DNA of 12,086 nucleotides from IMG/VR virus record IMGVR_UViG_2703718792_000009; one strand, 5' to 3'. This document shows, in pieces, positions 1,361-10,838 of this stretch; position 1 is the stretch's first letter, and the number at the start of each line of letters is the position of its first letter. The DNA is from a virus. Taxonomy: Duplodnaviria; Heunggongvirae; Uroviricota; Caudoviricetes. The notes beneath the pieces were generated by a model. That model was not told the origin of the DNA, did no database searches, and saw only the letters and a list, made by a program, of their open reading frames with translations. The translations under genes were made by a program, and so were the position numbers.

Positions 1361-2020
1361 ATGAAAATGAAATGGTATGAACTGGCTAGATCCAGAATGA
1401 AAGAGCTCGGCATAACTCAAGAGAAGTTAGCCGAAGAGCTAGGTATGACGCAGGGTGGGATTGGACACTGGTTGCGCGGATCTCGTCATCCATCTCTTAG
1501 TGATATTGGTGTGGTGTTTAAATACCTTGGTATTGATAACATATCATTCAACCACGACGGGACATTTTCACCTGTTGGCGAATACTCATCGGCCCCAGTT
1601 AAAAAACAATATGAGTACCCTGTTTTTTCTCATGTTCAGGCTGGGATGTTCTCTCCAGAACTTAGAACCTTTACCAAAGGTGATGCAGAGAGATGGGTAA
1701 GCACAACCAAAAAAGCCAGTGATTCTGCATTCTGGCTTGAGGTTGAAGGTAACTCAATGACCGCACCAACAGGTTCCAAGCCCAGTTTTCCTGATGGAAT
1801 ATTAATTCTGGTTGACCCTGAAAAGGCCGTTGAGCCTGGCGATTTCTGCATAGCCAGACTTGGTGGTGATGAATTTACCTTCAAGAAACTGATCAGGGAT
1901 AGCGGTCAGGTGTTTTTACAACCACTAAACCCACAGTACCCAATAATCCCATGCAATGAGAGTTGTTCCGTTGTGGGGAAAGTTATCGCCAGCCAGTGGC
2001 CTGAAGAGACGTTTGGGTAA
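1361..2020 (+). CDS. cI: cI-type prophage repressor with LexA/S24-like autocleavage domain (219 aa); C-terminal domain lambda-cI-like, N-terminal HTH of a different immunity type
   Basis: C-terminal ~135 aa ([63 protein letters not shown]...[23 protein letters not shown]...[10 protein letters not shown]) match lambda cI as recalled, including the GNSM serine and FKKL lysine; N-terminus [37 protein letters not shown] is unlike lambda. Start set at ATG 1361; the longer track ORF from 1199 would overlap cro and the operators. Confidence 0.9.
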
Positions 2021-3396: not shown

Positions 3397-3494
3397 GATC
3401 ACCCAACCACATAAGCTATGGGATGCAATGCCGGAGCAACCGTCTCAGGAGGAGCTTCGAGATTGCATCGCCAAAGTTTATTCGGGAGGAATCC

Positions 3495-3767
3495 ATGTCC
3501 AGAAAAACAGAATTTAAAGGCACCGCAGCTTCTCGCCGTAGAGCTCGTCGCGCAAATCTGCAAAGTCAGGAGGCGATCAGCTCCGACAAGCTACACAGGC
3601 CAACCCCTTCACGAGTGGTCTTGCAATGCAAGCGCAAACCAGCAATGAGAGCAGAAGTGATAACTCTGACAACGTTGACCAGAAAATATGAAGGTTCAAC
3701 TTGTCTTCCGAACGTAGCTCTTTACGCGGCAGGCCACCGGAAATCCAAACAACTGACAGCAAGATGA
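3495..3767 (+). CDS. N: N-type transcription antiterminator, P22 gene-24-like (90 aa)
   Basis: Arginine-rich motif near the N-terminus (ASRRRARRANL) and C-terminus NVALYAAGHRKSKQLTAR, close to the P22 gp24 C-terminus as recalled; GGGAGGA RBS before ATG 3495; downstream of PL and nutL. Confidence 0.8.
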   Translation: MSRKTEFKGTAASRRRARRANLQSQEAISSDKLHRPTPSRVVLQCKRKPAMRAEVITLTTLTRKYEGSTCLPNVALYAAGHRKSKQLTAR

Positions 3768-3828: not shown

Positions 3829-4452
3829 ATGTCATCAATCCGCTTAACTACGAGAATGAAAGAGGATATCGCTCGTAACGCTTTAATTAAGTCCGGGGTT
3901 TTCACCGAACTTGAAGAAGTAACAAAGTTAAAGAACCGGCTTGCACTTGACGCCAGAGTTGTTGCGTTTGGCGGTAAAAAGAAAACTGAAGAAGTGGATC
4001 AGTTATCATCCAGATTAATGGCTATAAGTGAAGAACTTGAAAAGATGGGATGTTCATTTTACTCATACGATGTTCGTTCTACTTCAATTTATCTGACTGT
4101 ATCTGGCAGAAGGGTTGGCTGGTATTCATATGGAAAAGACGGTAACGGCGAAGATATATTGCTCCCTACTCCTAACAGAGATAAATGCATGTTTAACGCA
4201 GAACACGAAATAACAAAAAGGTTTGATGAAATCTGCGCATTGCAACAAAAACTTGAAGCCAGGAAAAAGGATATCGAATCAAATGTATGGGCTGCTTTGA
4301 ACTCAGTAACAACAGTTAAGCGACTTATTGAAGTTTGGCCTGAAAGCAAAGAATTGCTACCAAAAGAAGCAGATAAAGCAAGTACAGCACTTCCTGCTTT
4401 ACGGGTAGAAGATTTGAATAAGATGATTGGACTTCCTTCCGAGGCCGCATAG
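3829..4452 (+). CDS. Hypothetical 207-aa soluble protein in the N to cIII interval (ral/sieB-equivalent accessory slot)
   Basis: GAGAGGA RBS 6 nt before ATG 3829 (the track ORF begins at a TTG at 3769); no hydrophobic segments; no motif I recognise; stop codon sits in the loop of a terminator hairpin. Confidence 0.7.
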   Translation: MSSIRLTTRMKEDIARNALIKSGVFTELEEVTKLKNRLALDARVVAFGGKKKTEEVDQLSSRLMAISEELEKMGCSFYSYDVRSTSIYLTVSGRRVGWYSYGKDGNGEDILLPTPNRDKCMFNAEHEITKRFDEICALQQKLEARKKDIESNVWAALNSVTTVKRLIEVWPESKELLPKEADKASTALPALRVEDLNKMIGLPSEAA

Positions 4453-4467: not shown

Positions 4468-4557
4468 GGCATAAACAACAGAATAAACACAGCACTGTGT
4501 ATTCATTCCAACGAGTGAATACACGGAGCAATTTAAAGCGTAAATAAGGAGCACACC

Positions 4558-4698
4558 ATGCAATATGCCATTGCAGGGTGGCCTGTTGCTGGCTGCCCTT
4601 CCGAATCTTTACTTGAGCGAATCACACGTAAATTACGTGACGGATGGAAACGACTCATCGACGTACTTAATCAGCCAGGAGTTCCCCAAAATGGATAA
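4558..4698 (+). CDS. cIII: cIII (46 aa), lambda cIII-like
   Basis: MQYAIAGWPVAGCPSESLLERITRKLRDGWKRLIDVLNQPGVPQNG, near-identical to the recalled lambda cIII N-terminal 46 aa; AAGGAG RBS upstream. Confidence 0.85.
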   Translation: MQYAIAGWPVAGCPSESLLERITRKLRDGWKRLIDVLNQPGVPQNG

Positions 4699-4804
4699 AA
4701 CACTTATGGCTATCCAGACTAAATTCACTATCGCCACTTTTATTGGCGATGAAAAGATGTTTCGTGAAGCCGTCGAAGCCTACAGGAAATGGAGGTCAAA
4801 ATGA
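4691..4804 (+). CDS. kil: Kil-like small protein (37 aa), overlapping the 3' end of cIII
   Basis: MDKTLMAIQTKFTIATFIGDEKMFREAVEAYRKWRSK; position and overlap with cIII as for lambda kil, and similar to my recollection of lambda Kil, which I cannot verify. Confidence 0.55.
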   Translation: MDKTLMAIQTKFTIATFIGDEKMFREAVEAYRKWRSK

Positions 4805-4989
4805 TTCCGGTAGAACTGGCGAAAACTCCAGAGTTAAGTCGATTAAAAAGAGAATATCACATTGCTGAGGCTCGTTACTGGCGTAAAGCGGGAGATAAAT
4901 CAAAGAAACAACTTTGTTTATGGCAGGCACAAAGAGAGCGCATGAATGAGCGCGAGTTTCTTTCCTCCCCATCCGAATTACCATTCTGA
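4801..4989 (+). CDS. Hypothetical 62-aa protein in the position lambda uses for gam
   Basis: GGAGG 5 nt before ATG 4801; ATGA overlap with the kil stop; basic, no recognised motif. Confidence 0.5.
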   Translation: MIPVELAKTPELSRLKREYHIAEARYWRKAGDKSKKQLCLWQAQRERMNEREFLSSPSELPF

Positions 4990-4997
4990 GGTGAATT

Positions 4998-5705
4998 ATG
5001 GATTTGAATAAATTCGATGAGCCATTCAGCCCCGAAGATATCGAATGGCGAATACAGCAAAGCGGTAAAACACGCGATGGCAAGGTGTGGGCTATGGTGC
5101 TGGCTTATGTCACGAACCGGGCAATCATGAAACGCCTGGACGATGTTTGCGGAAAAGCAGGATGGCGCAATGAATACCGCGATATTCCCAACAACGGCGG
5201 CGTTGAATGCGGCATATCAATAAAGATTGATTCCGAATGGGTCACCAAATGGGATGCTGCTGAAAACACGCAGGTAGAAGCCGTCAAAGGTGGTCGTTCC
5301 GGTGCAATGAAGCGCGCTGCCGTTCAGTGGGGAATCGGTCGGTATCTGTATAACCTTGAGGAAGGTTTCGCACAAACATCTCTCGATAAAAAGCAGGGGT
5401 GGCACAGGGCAAAACTGAAAGATGGAACAGGATTTTACTGGCTCCCTCCATCTCTGCCGGGATGGGCAATCCCAGCATCAGATAACAAACCATCACCAGA
5501 AAATACCAACCAGAAATCTCCATCGGTTGACTGCGAACAAATCCTGAAAGACTTCAGCGATTATGCGTCAACAGAAACTGACAAGAAAAAACTCATCGAG
5601 CGTTATCAGCGTGACTGGCAATTAATGGCTGGCAACGAGGAGGCGCAGGCTAAATGCGTTCAGGTAATGAACATCAGAGTTAACGAACTAAAACAGGCGG
5701 CATAA
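4998..5705 (+). CDS. Rad52/Sak-like single-strand annealing protein (235 aa)
   Basis: N-terminal pattern DIEWRIQQSGKTRDGKVWAMVLAYVTNRAIMKRLDDVCGKAGWRNEY is typical of Rad52-family phage annealing proteins; GAGGTG RBS; sits where lambda has bet. Confidence 0.7.
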   Translation: MDLNKFDEPFSPEDIEWRIQQSGKTRDGKVWAMVLAYVTNRAIMKRLDDVCGKAGWRNEYRDIPNNGGVECGISIKIDSEWVTKWDAAENTQVEAVKGGRSGAMKRAAVQWGIGRYLYNLEEGFAQTSLDKKQGWHRAKLKDGTGFYWLPPSLPGWAIPASDNKPSPENTNQKSPSVDCEQILKDFSDYASTETDKKKLIERYQRDWQLMAGNEEAQAKCVQVMNIRVNELKQAA

Positions 5706-6173
5706 ATGTCTCACTTGGACGGAATTATTAAAAGATTCGAGTCCAGCTACAAAGTTAATGAAACAACAGGTTGCTGGGAGTCTACCTATTCAAAAAACAA
5801 AGGAGGATACACAAAATTTGTAGCCTTTGGCGTAACAATGCTTTCTCATCGGGTTGCTTTTGAGCTTTATCACTCCCCCATTCCATCTGGGAAGATGGTT
5901 TGCCACAAATGCGATAACCCATGCTGCGTTAATCCTGAACATCTCTTTTTAGGTAGCGCGCAAGAAAACATGGACGACAAGATAGCAAAAGGAAGGCATC
6001 GTGGAGCCAAGAAAGGTCATGCTCATCATGGTGCAAAATTAACAGAGTGGCAGGTTATAGAAATTAGGAAAAGACTCTCTGAAAAAGAGAGTCAGTACAA
6101 GATAGCAAAAGACATGGGTGTATCTCAATCAATTATAAGCAACATAAAAACTGGCAAGAGGTGGAGCAAATGA
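5706..6173 (+). CDS. HNH endonuclease (155 aa), free-standing
   Basis: Core [27 protein letters not shown] (HNH with Cys-rich metal site); start is immediately after the annealing-protein stop and the stop overlaps the ssb start (ATGA). Confidence 0.8.
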
Positions 6174-6676
6174 GTTCTCGCGGGATAAATAAGGTGATTA
6201 TCCTTGGTCGGGTAGGACAAGACCCTGAAGTTCGATACTCACCATCAGGAACAGCGTTCGCTAACCTGACAATAGCCACGTCAGAACAATGGCGAGATAA
6301 AAATACTGGCGAGCAAAAGGAATTGACTGAATGGCATCGTGTTGCTGTATCCGGGAAACTTGCTGAGGTCGTGGGGCAGTATGTGAAAAAAGGTGATCAG
6401 ATTTATTTCGAGGGAATGCTGAGAACCAGAAAGTGGAAAGACCAGTCAGGGCAAGACCGTTACACAACCGAGGTTCATGTCGGAATTAATGGCGTGATGC
6501 AAATGCTTGGCGGCATTGGCGACAGCAAACAACAAGCAGCCAACAGGCAATCACAGAAGCCACAGCAGCAATCATCACCAGCACAACACAACGAACCTCC
6601 GATGGATTTTGACGACGATATACCCTTTGCACCAGTAACTCTCCCCTTCCCTCATCACGCTATTCACGCAATTTAA
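6170..6676 (+). CDS. ssb: Single-stranded DNA-binding protein SSB, with a 15-aa extension beyond the canonical DDDIPF tip
   Basis: [42 protein letters not shown]...TEWHRV...[11 protein letters not shown]...[11 protein letters not shown] aligns with E. coli SSB as recalled; the ORF continues [15 protein letters not shown] before the stop. Confidence 0.9.
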
Positions 6677-6684
6677 GGACTTAC

Positions 6685-7233
6685 ATGAATCACTTAATGG
6701 TTGACCTTGAAACAATGGGCAACGGTCCATACGCGCCAGTTATTTCTATTGGGGCGGTATTCTTTGACCCGAATACCGGAGAAACAGGAGAAGAGTTCTC
6801 GGTAAATATCTCGCTTGAGTCATCAATGCGATATCGGGCGCGTCCTGACGCTTCAACGATTTTATGGTGGATGGAACAGAGTGAAGAAGCCAGAAAATCG
6901 CTAACCAGCAACACTCAAGAGCTTTCAACGGCTCTTTCATGGTTATCTGAATTCATCATAAAGAACGCTAACCACAAATTCGTTCAGGTTTGGGGGAATG
7001 GAGCATCATTTGACTGCGTTATTCTCCGCAACAGTTATTCGCTGACAGGGCAGCCAGTTCCGTGGCAGTGGTGGAATGACCGCGACGTAAGAACAATCGT
7101 CGAGCTTGGAAAGGTAATAGGATTCGACCCTAAGCGAGATATGCCATTCAAAGGAACTCGCCACAACGCGCTTGATGATGCCATCCACCAAGCCAAATAC
7201 GTTTCAGCGATCTGGAAAAAGTTAGCTAAATAA
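6685..7233 (+). CDS. DnaQ-like (DEDDh) 3'-5' exonuclease (182 aa)
   Basis: Exo I MVDLETMG (D-x-E), Exo II-like WGNGASFDCVIL, Exo III HNALDDAIHQAKY (H-x4-D); AAGGA RBS. Confidence 0.75.
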   Translation: MNHLMVDLETMGNGPYAPVISIGAVFFDPNTGETGEEFSVNISLESSMRYRARPDASTILWWMEQSEEARKSLTSNTQELSTALSWLSEFIIKNANHKFVQVWGNGASFDCVILRNSYSLTGQPVPWQWWNDRDVRTIVELGKVIGFDPKRDMPFKGTRHNALDDAIHQAKYVSAIWKKLAK

Positions 7234-7249
7234 TCAACCGGAGAAAAAC

Positions 7250-7543
7250 ATGCCAGCGCCTTTGTATGGTGCGGATGACGCGCGCCGCTGTTCCGGCAAT
7301 TCCGTATCGGAGGTGCTGGATAAATTCAGAAAAAACTACGATCGGATAATGTCGCTACCGCAGGAAACGAAAGAGGAAAAGGAATTTCGCCATTGTATAT
7401 GGCTTGCAGAGAAAGAAGAACGCGAGCGAATTTACCAGACATCAATCCGACCATTCCGCAAAGCCACATATACCCACTTCCCTGAAATTGACCCGCGCCT
7501 GCGTAATTACCGCTCACGCTATGGCGCTATCAGTAATGACTGA
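7250..7543 (+). CDS. Hypothetical protein (97 aa)
   Basis: GGAGA RBS 5 nt before ATG; same-strand operon context; no motif recognised. Confidence 0.55.
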
Positions 7544-7553
7544 GGAATTAACC

Positions 7554-7718
7554 ATGAGAGGACTTGCATACAATCCCGGCATTCTTCCGGCAGAAATGAT
7601 TATTCGCCAACGCGTAAAGCCAATGCCATCGAGAGAGGAATTGCTTAAGAGAAATTCTTTTCCATCAGTGAATAAAAACAAATATCTGAATGCGATGTGG
7701 CGGAGTGGGAAGAAATGA
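7554..7718 (+). CDS. Hypothetical small protein (54 aa)
   Basis: GAGGAA RBS before ATG 7554 (the track ORF from 7404 would overlap the previous gene); stop overlaps the next start (ATGA). Confidence 0.45.
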
Positions 7719-10108: not shown

Positions 10109-10309
10109 ATGCAACACGAACTACAACCTGATTCACTGGTTGATTTGAAATTCATCATGGCCGATACTGGCTTCGGTAAGACCTTCATCTATGACCGGAT
10201 TAAGTCCGGCGACCTGCCTAAAGCCAAAGTTATCCACGGGCGAGCAAGATGGTTATATCGTGATCATTGTGAATTCAAAAATAAGCTCTTAAGCCGCGCC
10301 AATGGGTAA
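10109..10309 (+). CDS. torI: AlpA/TorI-family excisionase (recombination directionality factor), 66 aa
   Basis: MQHELQPDSLVDLKFIMADTGFGKTFIYDRIKSGDLPKAKVIHGRARWLYRDHCEFKNKLLSRANG, a winged-helix Xis/AlpA-type fold signature; matches my recollection of E. coli KplE1 TorI; last prophage gene before the att core; CGGAGA RBS. Confidence 0.75.
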   Translation: MQHELQPDSLVDLKFIMADTGFGKTFIYDRIKSGDLPKAKVIHGRARWLYRDHCEFKNKLLSRANG

Positions 10310-10378
10310 AATAGCGGGTAAAATATTTCTCACATCTAAAAAACACCATTCCAATCAATCCCCTGCCTCGTCAAGTAG

Positions 10379-10393
10379 ATGTCTGCAGGGGAC
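10379..10393 (+). other. Right attachment-site core (attR): 15-nt copy of a tRNA 3' end (CTGCAGGGGACACCA), consistent with tRNA-Arg argW
   Basis: T-stem 3' half, acceptor 3' half, discriminator and CCA with no upstream tRNA body: the partial duplicate left by integration into a tRNA gene. The argW assignment is from memory. Confidence 0.6.
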
Positions 10394-10838
10394 ACCAGAT
10401 ACCCTTCAAACCAAATCTACCTTCACCCCGTAAAAGATGGGTTTGGCAGCACACTTGCCCTATATCTACTCATTTTTACTGCAACAGGTTGAAATCTCAG
10501 CACTGTCAGAAAGCGCTGATGACTAAACAGCCCTGGGCCGGGCGATGTAACCATCATACAGAATCCTGATAGCGAAATATGGCGTGACTCGATACTTCAC
10601 TCTGCAATGCATTCCTTGATGAATTCGCAGGCCCGTGATACACGGGACAGGTCGCTGAATGACGACAATGTCCTGGAAATCAGCGAACCGCGTATCCGGA
10701 GTACATTTGAGCGACTGTACCAGAACATGAATGAGGCGTTTGGATTAGGCGATTATTAGCAGGGCTAAGCATTTTTGTATTATTATTTTCCGGTTGAGGG
10801 ATATGGAGATATCGACAACAACCGGAAAAAGTTTACGT

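Follow-up and report, generated by a model that had tools for sequence, protein, structure and literature searches.

A probable homing-type HNH endonuclease gene at the start of ssb in a P22/epsilon34-type recombination module of an Escherichia coli prophage

Background

In phages with a P22-type recombination module, the Abc2 protein turns the host RecBCD into a resecting nuclease (PMC5928155, PMC9836394). The modules of P22 (erf-abc1-abc2) and HK620 (sak4-ssb-abc2) both follow this strategy, in which resection is left to RecBCD and no phage 5'-3' exonuclease is involved (PMC5928155, PMC2629481). A variant was reported in 2008 in epsilon34, whose genes 33-36 were assigned to Abc2, to a nuclease called "unusual", to an SSB of bacterial type and to an Erf-like protein having only its C-terminal 56 residues in common with P22 Erf (PMC2629481). 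A 2025 survey of 325 lambdoid phages listed DnaQ-like 3'-5' nucleases and HNH endonucleases among the components of recombination (Rec) modules, the type present in mEp235 and epsilon34 being composed of a single-strand annealing protein (SAP), SSB-1, a DnaQ-like nuclease and Abc2 (PMC12315714). Here we analyze a 12,086-nucleotide stretch of tailed-phage (Caudoviricetes) DNA, IMG/VR record IMGVR_UViG_2703718792_000009, referred to below in its whole length as the window, in which a module of this type carries an HNH endonuclease gene between the genes of a Rad52-like annealing protein and SSB. We consider it likely that this is a P22/epsilon34-type lambdoid Rec module with two optional cassettes, one of which, the HNH gene, is a homing endonuclease gene placed precisely where ssb begins.

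Modules of this type have been described before, and the gene content is known. The same order of arf-like, Rad52-like, SSB, DEDDh exonuclease and Abc2 genes is found in epsilon34 (genes 33-36) and mEp235 (genes 29-32), at the same kil-xis position and with protein identities of 98-100% for mEp235 and 90-92% for epsilon34; however, these two phages lack this HNH gene and their ssb starts with the un-recoded sequence ATGGCAAGCAGAGG. With P22 the window shares the annealing protein's C-terminal domain, also present in Erf (PMC2629481), and with HK620 the presence of a cognate SSB adjoining the annealing protein (PMC5928155). It differs from both by a Rad52-family annealing domain instead of Erf or Sak4, by a bacterial-type SSB instead of the SSB-2 of HK620, by the absence of Abc1 and by the addition of the HNH and DEDDh cassettes. 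For the HNH gene itself, the closest parallel is provided by the seg and mob genes of T-even phages, which are likewise small nuclease open reading frames (ORFs) located between conserved genes, present or absent among close relatives, and associated with a polymorphism of the adjacent conserved gene between nuclease-plus and nuclease-minus alleles. Unlike them, the HNH gene of the window resides in a temperate lambdoid prophage, takes over the start position of its target gene and supplies a re-coded start, and its target, ssb, belongs to the module that would repair the break; its activity is putative.

The HNH gene and its insertion site

The first-pass annotation of this region had placed Rad52-like, HNH, SSB and DnaQ-like exonuclease genes on the + strand, and Pfam and PHROGs agree with it for all four (Table 1). 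The HNH_3 match reaches 51 bits for a cutoff of 24.8 and is accompanied by weak C-terminal helix-turn-helix (HTH) matches, including HTH_38. The protein also matches the HNH families of PHROGs (best E 1.8e-33) and the "homing endonuclease" model of PADLOC (E 1.9e-07), and residues H48, C66, H67, C69, D70, N71, C74, N76 and H79 are invariant in its relatives at 100%, 74% and 62% identity. A search by sequence for a close solved structure gave nothing useful, only chance HTH matches. The G + C content of the gene is 0.41, versus 0.46-0.50 in the neighbouring genes. Both of its junctions are exactly as first described: the Rad52 stop codon TAA (5703-5705) directly abuts the HNH ATG at 5706, and the HNH stop codon TGA (6171-6173) overlaps the ssb ATG (6170-6172) in an ATGA at 6170-6173, with a GGTGGAG at the 3' end of the HNH gene, just 5' of the ssb ATG. 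A mechanical ORF list starts ssb at GTG 6161, but every homologue has the ATG at 6170.

The same annotation had proposed that the HNH gene is a homing-type insertion between two normally adjacent genes, and the relatives bear this out, as the gene is not universal at this position and about 90% of the E. coli junctions lack it. It is present in 40 of the 403 complete E. coli genomes that have the Rad52/ssb junction, the Rad52 gene abutting ssb in the rest, and the matched junction record measures 865 bp with the gene versus 401 bp when empty. Among 80 IMG/VR loci with a near-identical Rad52, nine carry it and 71 do not, and no copy was found at this site in the 89 matching records of the phage collection. 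Conversely, all 24 IMG/VR loci encoding a 99-100% identical HNH protein harbor it at the same single site. The close relatives without the gene, in which Rad52 abuts ssb, include mEp235, epsilon34, HK75 and Huey; in mEp235 and epsilon34 the Rad52 stop TAA is followed at once by the ssb ATG, and the mEp235-type junction reads ...GGCGGCATAAATGGCAAGCAGAGGCGTAAATAAGG... Alignment of the window with these two phages gives a clean 464-bp insertion-deletion (indel) plus around 18 re-coded nucleotides, identity extending upstream up to the Rad52 stop and resuming downstream at AATAAGGTG in ssb. The boundaries of this indel are identical in all loci compared and lie outside any intron or intein. E2348/69 was sought as a genome that might hold both filled and empty sites; two modules were identified there, of three matches, and both carry the HNH gene. 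Insertion of the gene at a fixed site is strongly supported by these comparisons of filled and empty junctions.

A re-coded ssb start linked to the HNH gene

The first six ssb codons, which form the right end of the HNH cassette, differ systematically between the two kinds of junctions. Alleles without the HNH gene read ATGGCAAGCAGAGGCGTA, that is ATG GCA AGC AGA GGC GTA, versus ATG AGT TCT CGC GG(G/A) (A/G)TA in alleles with it. The N-terminus of SSB nevertheless stays MxSRGxNKV in both, the change including switches of codon family for Ser (AGC to TCT) and Arg (AGA to CGC). The start ATGAGTTCTCGCGG is found in 41 of 41 loci with the HNH gene, and the ATGGCAAGCAGAGG type in 75 of 75 loci without it. 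Exact junction-pattern scans of the 2.9 million viral contigs of IMG/VR recovered the HNH end followed by the re-coded start in 29 contigs and the annealing-protein end followed by the un-recoded start in at least 120, while neither the HNH end with the un-recoded start nor the annealing-protein end with the re-coded start occurred in any contig. At least two ssb alleles carry the cassette, and the switch between them lies at AATAAGGTGAT, immediately 3' of the re-coded codons, which indicates that it has moved between backgrounds together with them. Presumably, the re-coded codons represent the target in a form resistant to the nuclease.

The HNH start codon stands where ssb formerly started, and GGTGGAG precedes the new ssb start, so that the insertion takes over one set of translation signals and brings another with it. 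The HNH gene would use the old ssb start position and its initiation context for its own translation, and the GGAG ribosome-binding sequence at its 3' end, together with the ATGA overlap, would restart translation of ssb.

The same HNH lineage in diverged phages

A 74% identical HNH protein is encoded in six IMG/VR loci (L029-L034; locus numbers are those of our comparison set), where the junction and the ATGA overlap are those of the window. The neighbouring genes have diverged in this clade, the annealing protein being 37-64% identical with either a Rad52-like or an Erf-like N-domain, and SSB 50-63% identical. A 62% identical HNH lies between an ERF protein gene and ssb in Vibrio phage 1.079.O (L127), where a short ORF 5' of the HNH gene (L127:2440-2480) begins with ATGGCATCACGCGGA (MASRG...) and represents a displaced old ssb start; this leftover puts the insertion point within the first ssb codons. 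Relatives at or below 45% identity are mostly located elsewhere, 39 of 42 being away from any ssb. A scan of one genome per species for the host of the 74% clade turned up only such relatives.

When the HNH gene is compared between the E. coli and 74% clades, the proportions of nonsynonymous (pN) and synonymous (pS) differences are 0.19 and 0.80, given in place of dN/dS because synonymous sites are saturated. The low pN at this pS indicates that the protein is kept functional by purifying selection. In spite of this saturation, the 14 nucleotides ATGAGTTCTCGCGG are identical in the two clades.

Homing and alternative explanations

A fixed site, sporadic occupancy, constant ends, a target polymorphism linked to the gene, conservation of the site in diverged hosts and a selected ORF together point to a free-standing homing endonuclease gene. 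From these patterns we infer cleavage, the cleavage position, immunity of the re-coded allele and homing as follows. When a genome carrying the HNH gene meets a relative lacking it, in co-infection or upon induction of a polylysogen, the enzyme would cut the 5' end of un-recoded ssb, around GCAAGCAGAGGCGTAAA, while re-coding would protect the allele of its own genome; repair of the break, quite possibly via this same recombination module, would then transfer a copy of the cassette, re-coded flank included, to the cut genome. A promoter or terminator on the + strand was sought inside the module and none was found, suggesting that the HNH gene is co-transcribed with its neighbours; having no promoter of its own, it would act only in lytic growth or induction, alongside the recombination proteins.

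Several points weigh against this interpretation. An occupancy of around 10% together with very high identity could result from a single clonal insertion of recent date that ordinary recombination then spread, although this is countered by the presence of 74% and 62% relatives at the same site. The re-coded flank could be donor sequence that hitch-hiked with the gene, not a determinant of immunity. Every copy comes from a prophage or from a viral contig derived from one, so that activity in productive infection is a supposition from sequence. Finally, in the 2025 survey, HNH and DnaQ-like nuclease genes in tight packing are taken to be probable functional components of Rec modules (PMC12315714). 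Taken further, this would make the HNH endonuclease a non-selfish component whose breaks or nicks start phage recombination or recombination-dependent replication. Its tight packing and translational coupling in the Rec operon, the lack of an internal promoter or terminator, the purifying selection on the protein and the adjacency of HNH and ssb from E. coli prophages to a Vibrio phage are all in line with such a role; however, around 90% of near-identical Rad52/SSB modules do without the gene, including those of the viable mEp235, HK75 and epsilon34, and neither the strictly linked re-coding of ssb nor the leftover ssb start in the Vibrio phage is predicted by it. The G + C content also falls below that of the neighbours. 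We regard this role as very unlikely.

Free-standing homing endonucleases of phages such as T4 cause marker exclusion of relatives, and the HNH enzyme could likewise be mainly a weapon that cuts the ssb 5' end of competitors, and perhaps of the host, its own re-coded ssb being immune and its spread a by-product of exclusion. The cassette always brings its own, putatively resistant, ssb start, and of 27 nucleotides at the ssb start, 24 are the same in the un-recoded phage gene and in the chromosomal ssb of E. coli K-12, AGCAGAGGCGTAAA being identical. As a gene of the PL operon it would be silent in a lysogen, however, and we hold a principal role in exclusion to be unlikely; its mechanism overlaps that of homing, and both can hold. 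A bolder version, which we also rate as improbable, is that this HNH lineage specialized on the near-universal 5' end of bacterial-type ssb (MASRGVNKV...), with the host ssb as an additional substrate, in a "cut and replace the host SSB" takeover device. If so, an induced phage carrying the HNH gene would break the ssb of its host and rivals while expressing its own re-coded, immune ssb, and a phage SSB with a masked C-terminal tip may not serve the host SSB-partner proteins. Overall, homing accounts best for the gene, which by its sequence is a new and well-delimited element of the free-standing homing-endonuclease kind, with ssb as its putative target gene.

The DEDDh exonuclease, a second optional cassette

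Characterised members of the DEDDh/DexA-like family include a DNase (DexA) and an RNase (Rv2179c). The exonuclease gene 3' of ssb in the window encodes a protein of this family, in which the DEDDh residues D7, E9, D110, H160 and D165 are present, the His lying five positions before the last Asp. Its nearest solved relative is T4 DexA (8KEL, E 7e-14), whose D7, E9 and D119 align with D7, E9 and D110. The predicted fold and catalytic residues are thus those of DexA and of its E. coli homologue EcD, but the relationship to DexA is distant and the protein is shorter (182 versus 227 aa), without the DexA loops. The predicted polarity is 3'-5', and the protein most likely trims 3' ends or flaps. T4 DexA is a 3'-5' DNA exonuclease involved in break processing during intron homing (PMC12153337).

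The first-pass annotation had taken this exonuclease to stand in for the usual 5'-3' partner of the annealing protein. The family assignment holds, since the domain search returns a DexA-like 3'-5' family and not a 5'-3' enzyme of another fold; the status of fixed partner does not. The gene occurs in only 27 of the 80 IMG/VR loci with a near-identical Rad52, among which the commonest arrangement is Rad52-SSB-Abc2, and forms a clean indel of around 560 bp, bounded by TAA on both sides, from the ssb stop to the ribosome-binding site of Abc2. This makes it an accessory cassette, and the missing 5'-3' exonuclease is accounted for by Abc2. A homing pair formed by the two nucleases was also considered and rejected, as their genes do not co-occur: the exonuclease is found in three of 24 loci with the HNH gene versus 25 of 71 without it.

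A function outside recombination, either as a DexA/EcD-type ("HREX") cassette for defence against or exclusion of modified phage DNA or as a nucleotide scavenger, is possible but doubtful. Besides the kinship with DexA, it is suggested by the protection that EcD confers against T4 by degrading DNA containing 5-hydroxymethylcytosine (5hmC) (PMC12153337), and by the optional and clean character of the cassette, reminiscent of accessory "moron" genes. EcD is however a different protein: identity of the two was rejected, since the EcD cloning primers encode the N-terminus MIDTET and a different C-terminus, and they are family relatives only. Moreover, the DexA aspartate that recognizes 5hmC is not clearly aligned, a gene inside the PL early operon without its own promoter should be off in a lysogen, and the part played by DexA in intron-homing break processing (PMC12153337) fits recombination.

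The SSB tail and endonuclease genes at the other end of ssb

The PF00436 match covers the OB-fold single-stranded DNA-binding domain (aa 9-107) of SSB, which is 98% identical to mEp235 gp31. The acidic tip DDDIPF is internal, with 15 residues following it, so that SSB has no free acidic tip; in other phages, some alleles do end in a free IPF. The tail has a counterpart in Huey and Bas106, where ssb ends ...IPF* and the next gene encodes an HNH-type endonuclease from a different family (L004:3751-4218 and L003:3757-4236). These endonucleases end in PVTLPFPRHAIHAI, and their last 14 codons are the same DNA as the SSB tail of the window, the 3' codons of their ssb being synonymously re-coded relative to it. 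Across 317 loci, the tail is fused to SSB 184 times, forms the C-terminus of an endonuclease 48 times and has no other context. Among the Rad52-related loci, every SSB with a canonical end is accompanied by a gene of around 500 bp 3' of ssb. In the 74% clade, the SSBs preceding unrelated genes end canonically and the one preceding the exonuclease has the tail.

The tail is thus probably a scar left by an in-frame deletion of a Huey-type endonuclease gene, travelling with the downstream segment. Deletion is favoured because canonical IPF* ends also occur with unrelated downstream genes; the reverse route, in which an endonuclease gene was inserted into an ssb that had the extension before, is the less likely alternative. 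To stimulate its annealing protein, a cognate phage SSB requires its last six residues (PMC5928155). Judging from the translated ssb, this partner-binding tip is buried by the tail.

A third endonuclease, gp47, cited in the literature as a Rec-module HNH nuclease, occupies the 3' site of ssb in ES18 (L319:1975-2496), where the SSB end is canonical. It is 35% identical to the HNH protein of the window (E 3e-24), and related HNH_3 and HTH genes are therefore found at both ends of ssb in different phages. The endonucleases of ES18, Huey and Bas106 are all of HNH type and abut the same ssb in the same module, and re-coded ssb codons beside the insertion are also seen in alleles with post-ssb endonucleases. 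They differ from the HNH gene of the window by their location at the 3' instead of the 5' end of ssb and, for Huey and Bas106, by an unrelated HNH family. The window has no post-ssb endonuclease gene but keeps its last 15 codons fused to SSB. Another HNH endonuclease, gene 31 of epsilon34 (L002:4127-4819), is fused in frame to an EaE-like gene shortly downstream of Abc2, further evidence that this operon collects nuclease cassettes.

The annealing protein and the limits of the module

The annealing protein is 100% identical to mEp235 gp32 and 92% identical to epsilon34 gp36. Its PF04098 match (91.9 bits for a cutoff of 20.3) spans model positions 7-153 of 153 and places the annealing domain in the N-terminal aa 4-136. 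The C-terminal 60 or so residues (5526-5702) form a separate domain that also occurs on Erf-type annealing proteins, among them those of L029, L033, L034 and L127. This domain is joined to Rad52-like or Erf-like N-domains in different phages, including a Vibrio phage, and always adjoins ssb; it may be an SSB-contact domain. A search by sequence yielded no useful solved homologue of the annealing protein. A weak WW-domain-like match (Prp40 WW, E 0.1) at aa 129-164 (5382-5489), in the linker after the annealing domain, is probably due to chance.

The module is located between kil/cIII and xis, at the place of exo-bet-gam in lambda, and the ORFs from kil to Abc2 give no Pfam or PHROG match to a lambda Exo-type 5'-3' exonuclease, Red-beta or Gam, in agreement with the initial view that it stands in place of these genes. 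Its extent was drawn too narrowly: the proposed span of 4998-7233 has the contents described above but omits Abc2 and the arf-position gene, which corresponds in place to epsilon34 gene 37 and ES18 gp50. The core, or minimal conserved set, is composed of the Rad52-like protein, SSB and Abc2, and is also listed with the arf-like gene. The presence of Abc2 in the PL operon, encoded downstream of the annealing protein, makes the module P22-type (Abc2-dependent), and the redirection of host RecBCD for resection by Abc2 explains why no lambda Exo-type 5'-3' exonuclease is encoded. By analogy with P22 and HK620, the core genes would be transcribed from PL after N antitermination, Abc2 would redirect the host RecBCD to produce resected 3' ends, and the phage SSB would coat the single strands, which the Rad52-like protein would anneal. 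The exact four-gene combination is uncommon, 16 of 5426 complete E. coli genomes matching at least 80% of window positions 4500-7600.

Genomic context

The window, read here along the + strand, corresponds to the PL (early-left) side of a lambdoid/P22-like E. coli prophage, as identified from Pfam, PHROGs and PADLOC (Table 1). A BstA ORF, without any Pfam match, lies directly 3' of the cI-like repressor gene in a region of low G + C content (0.38-0.39). An Nmad5 gene is present in the PL operon between N and cIII. Around 530 bp without an integrase separate the TorI-like excisionase and cscB-like permease genes (window 10109-10838), and the E2348/69 counterpart of this stretch is annotated with a DUF4942 protein only; the end of the prophage therefore looks truncated.

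Table 1. Features of the window in gene order, with their best family matches
Feature	Position	Strand	Match or remark
cII and cro	start of gene order	-	
LexA/S24-type repressor	1364-2020		
BstA abortive-infection defence protein, 300 aa	2139-3041	+	PADLOC PDLC02356, E 4e-106
N	3423-3767		
Nmad5 family (nucleotide modification associated domain 5)	3829-4452	+	PF18757, E 1.1e-71
cIII and kil	between Nmad5 and arf-position gene		
arf-position small gene, upstream edge of Rec module	4789-4989	+	phrog_1723 ("recombinase"), E 2e-33
Rad52-family single-strand annealing protein, 235 aa	4998-5705	+	PF04098, E 5e-26; phrog_1097, E 3.5e-130
Free-standing HNH (His-Me finger) endonuclease with C-terminal HTH region, 155 aa	5706-6173	+	HNH_3 PF13392, E 1.1e-13
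Re-coded first six ssb codons (ATGAGTTCTCGCGGGATA), right end of HNH cassette	6170-6187	+	inherited with HNH gene
Bacterial-type single-stranded DNA-binding protein (SSB), 168 aa	6170-6676	+	PF00436, E 1.8e-36; phrog_44, E 7e-67
15-codon extension after DDDIPF of SSB	6629-6673	+	DNA shared with 3' end of second HNH-type endonuclease gene
DEDDh (DnaQ/DexA-like) exonuclease, predicted 3'-5', 182 aa	6685-7233	+	Rv2179c-like PF16473, E 2.8e-73
Abc2 anti-RecBCD protein	7250-7543	+	PF11043, E 5.6e-63, full length; phrog_656, E 7.7e-55
ea22-like and DUF551 genes	downstream of Abc2, before excisionase		
TorI-like excisionase	10109-10309		
cscB-like permease	after excisionase	-	

Conclusions

The locus offers a well-defined natural homing-type HNH gene in temperate lambdoid phages, whose site, ends and putative immunity re-coding are mapped to the nucleotide. 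Having a predicted target, around GCAAGCAGAGGCGTAAA, the enzyme can be tested directly and might serve as a site-specific nuclease. Both nucleases lately counted as members of Rec modules appear here as optional cassettes, which matters for the mining of recombineering tools. Finally, in most SSB alleles of this module family the DDDIPF tip would lie under a 15-residue tail probably derived from an endonuclease gene, which bears on the contact between phage SSB and annealing protein.

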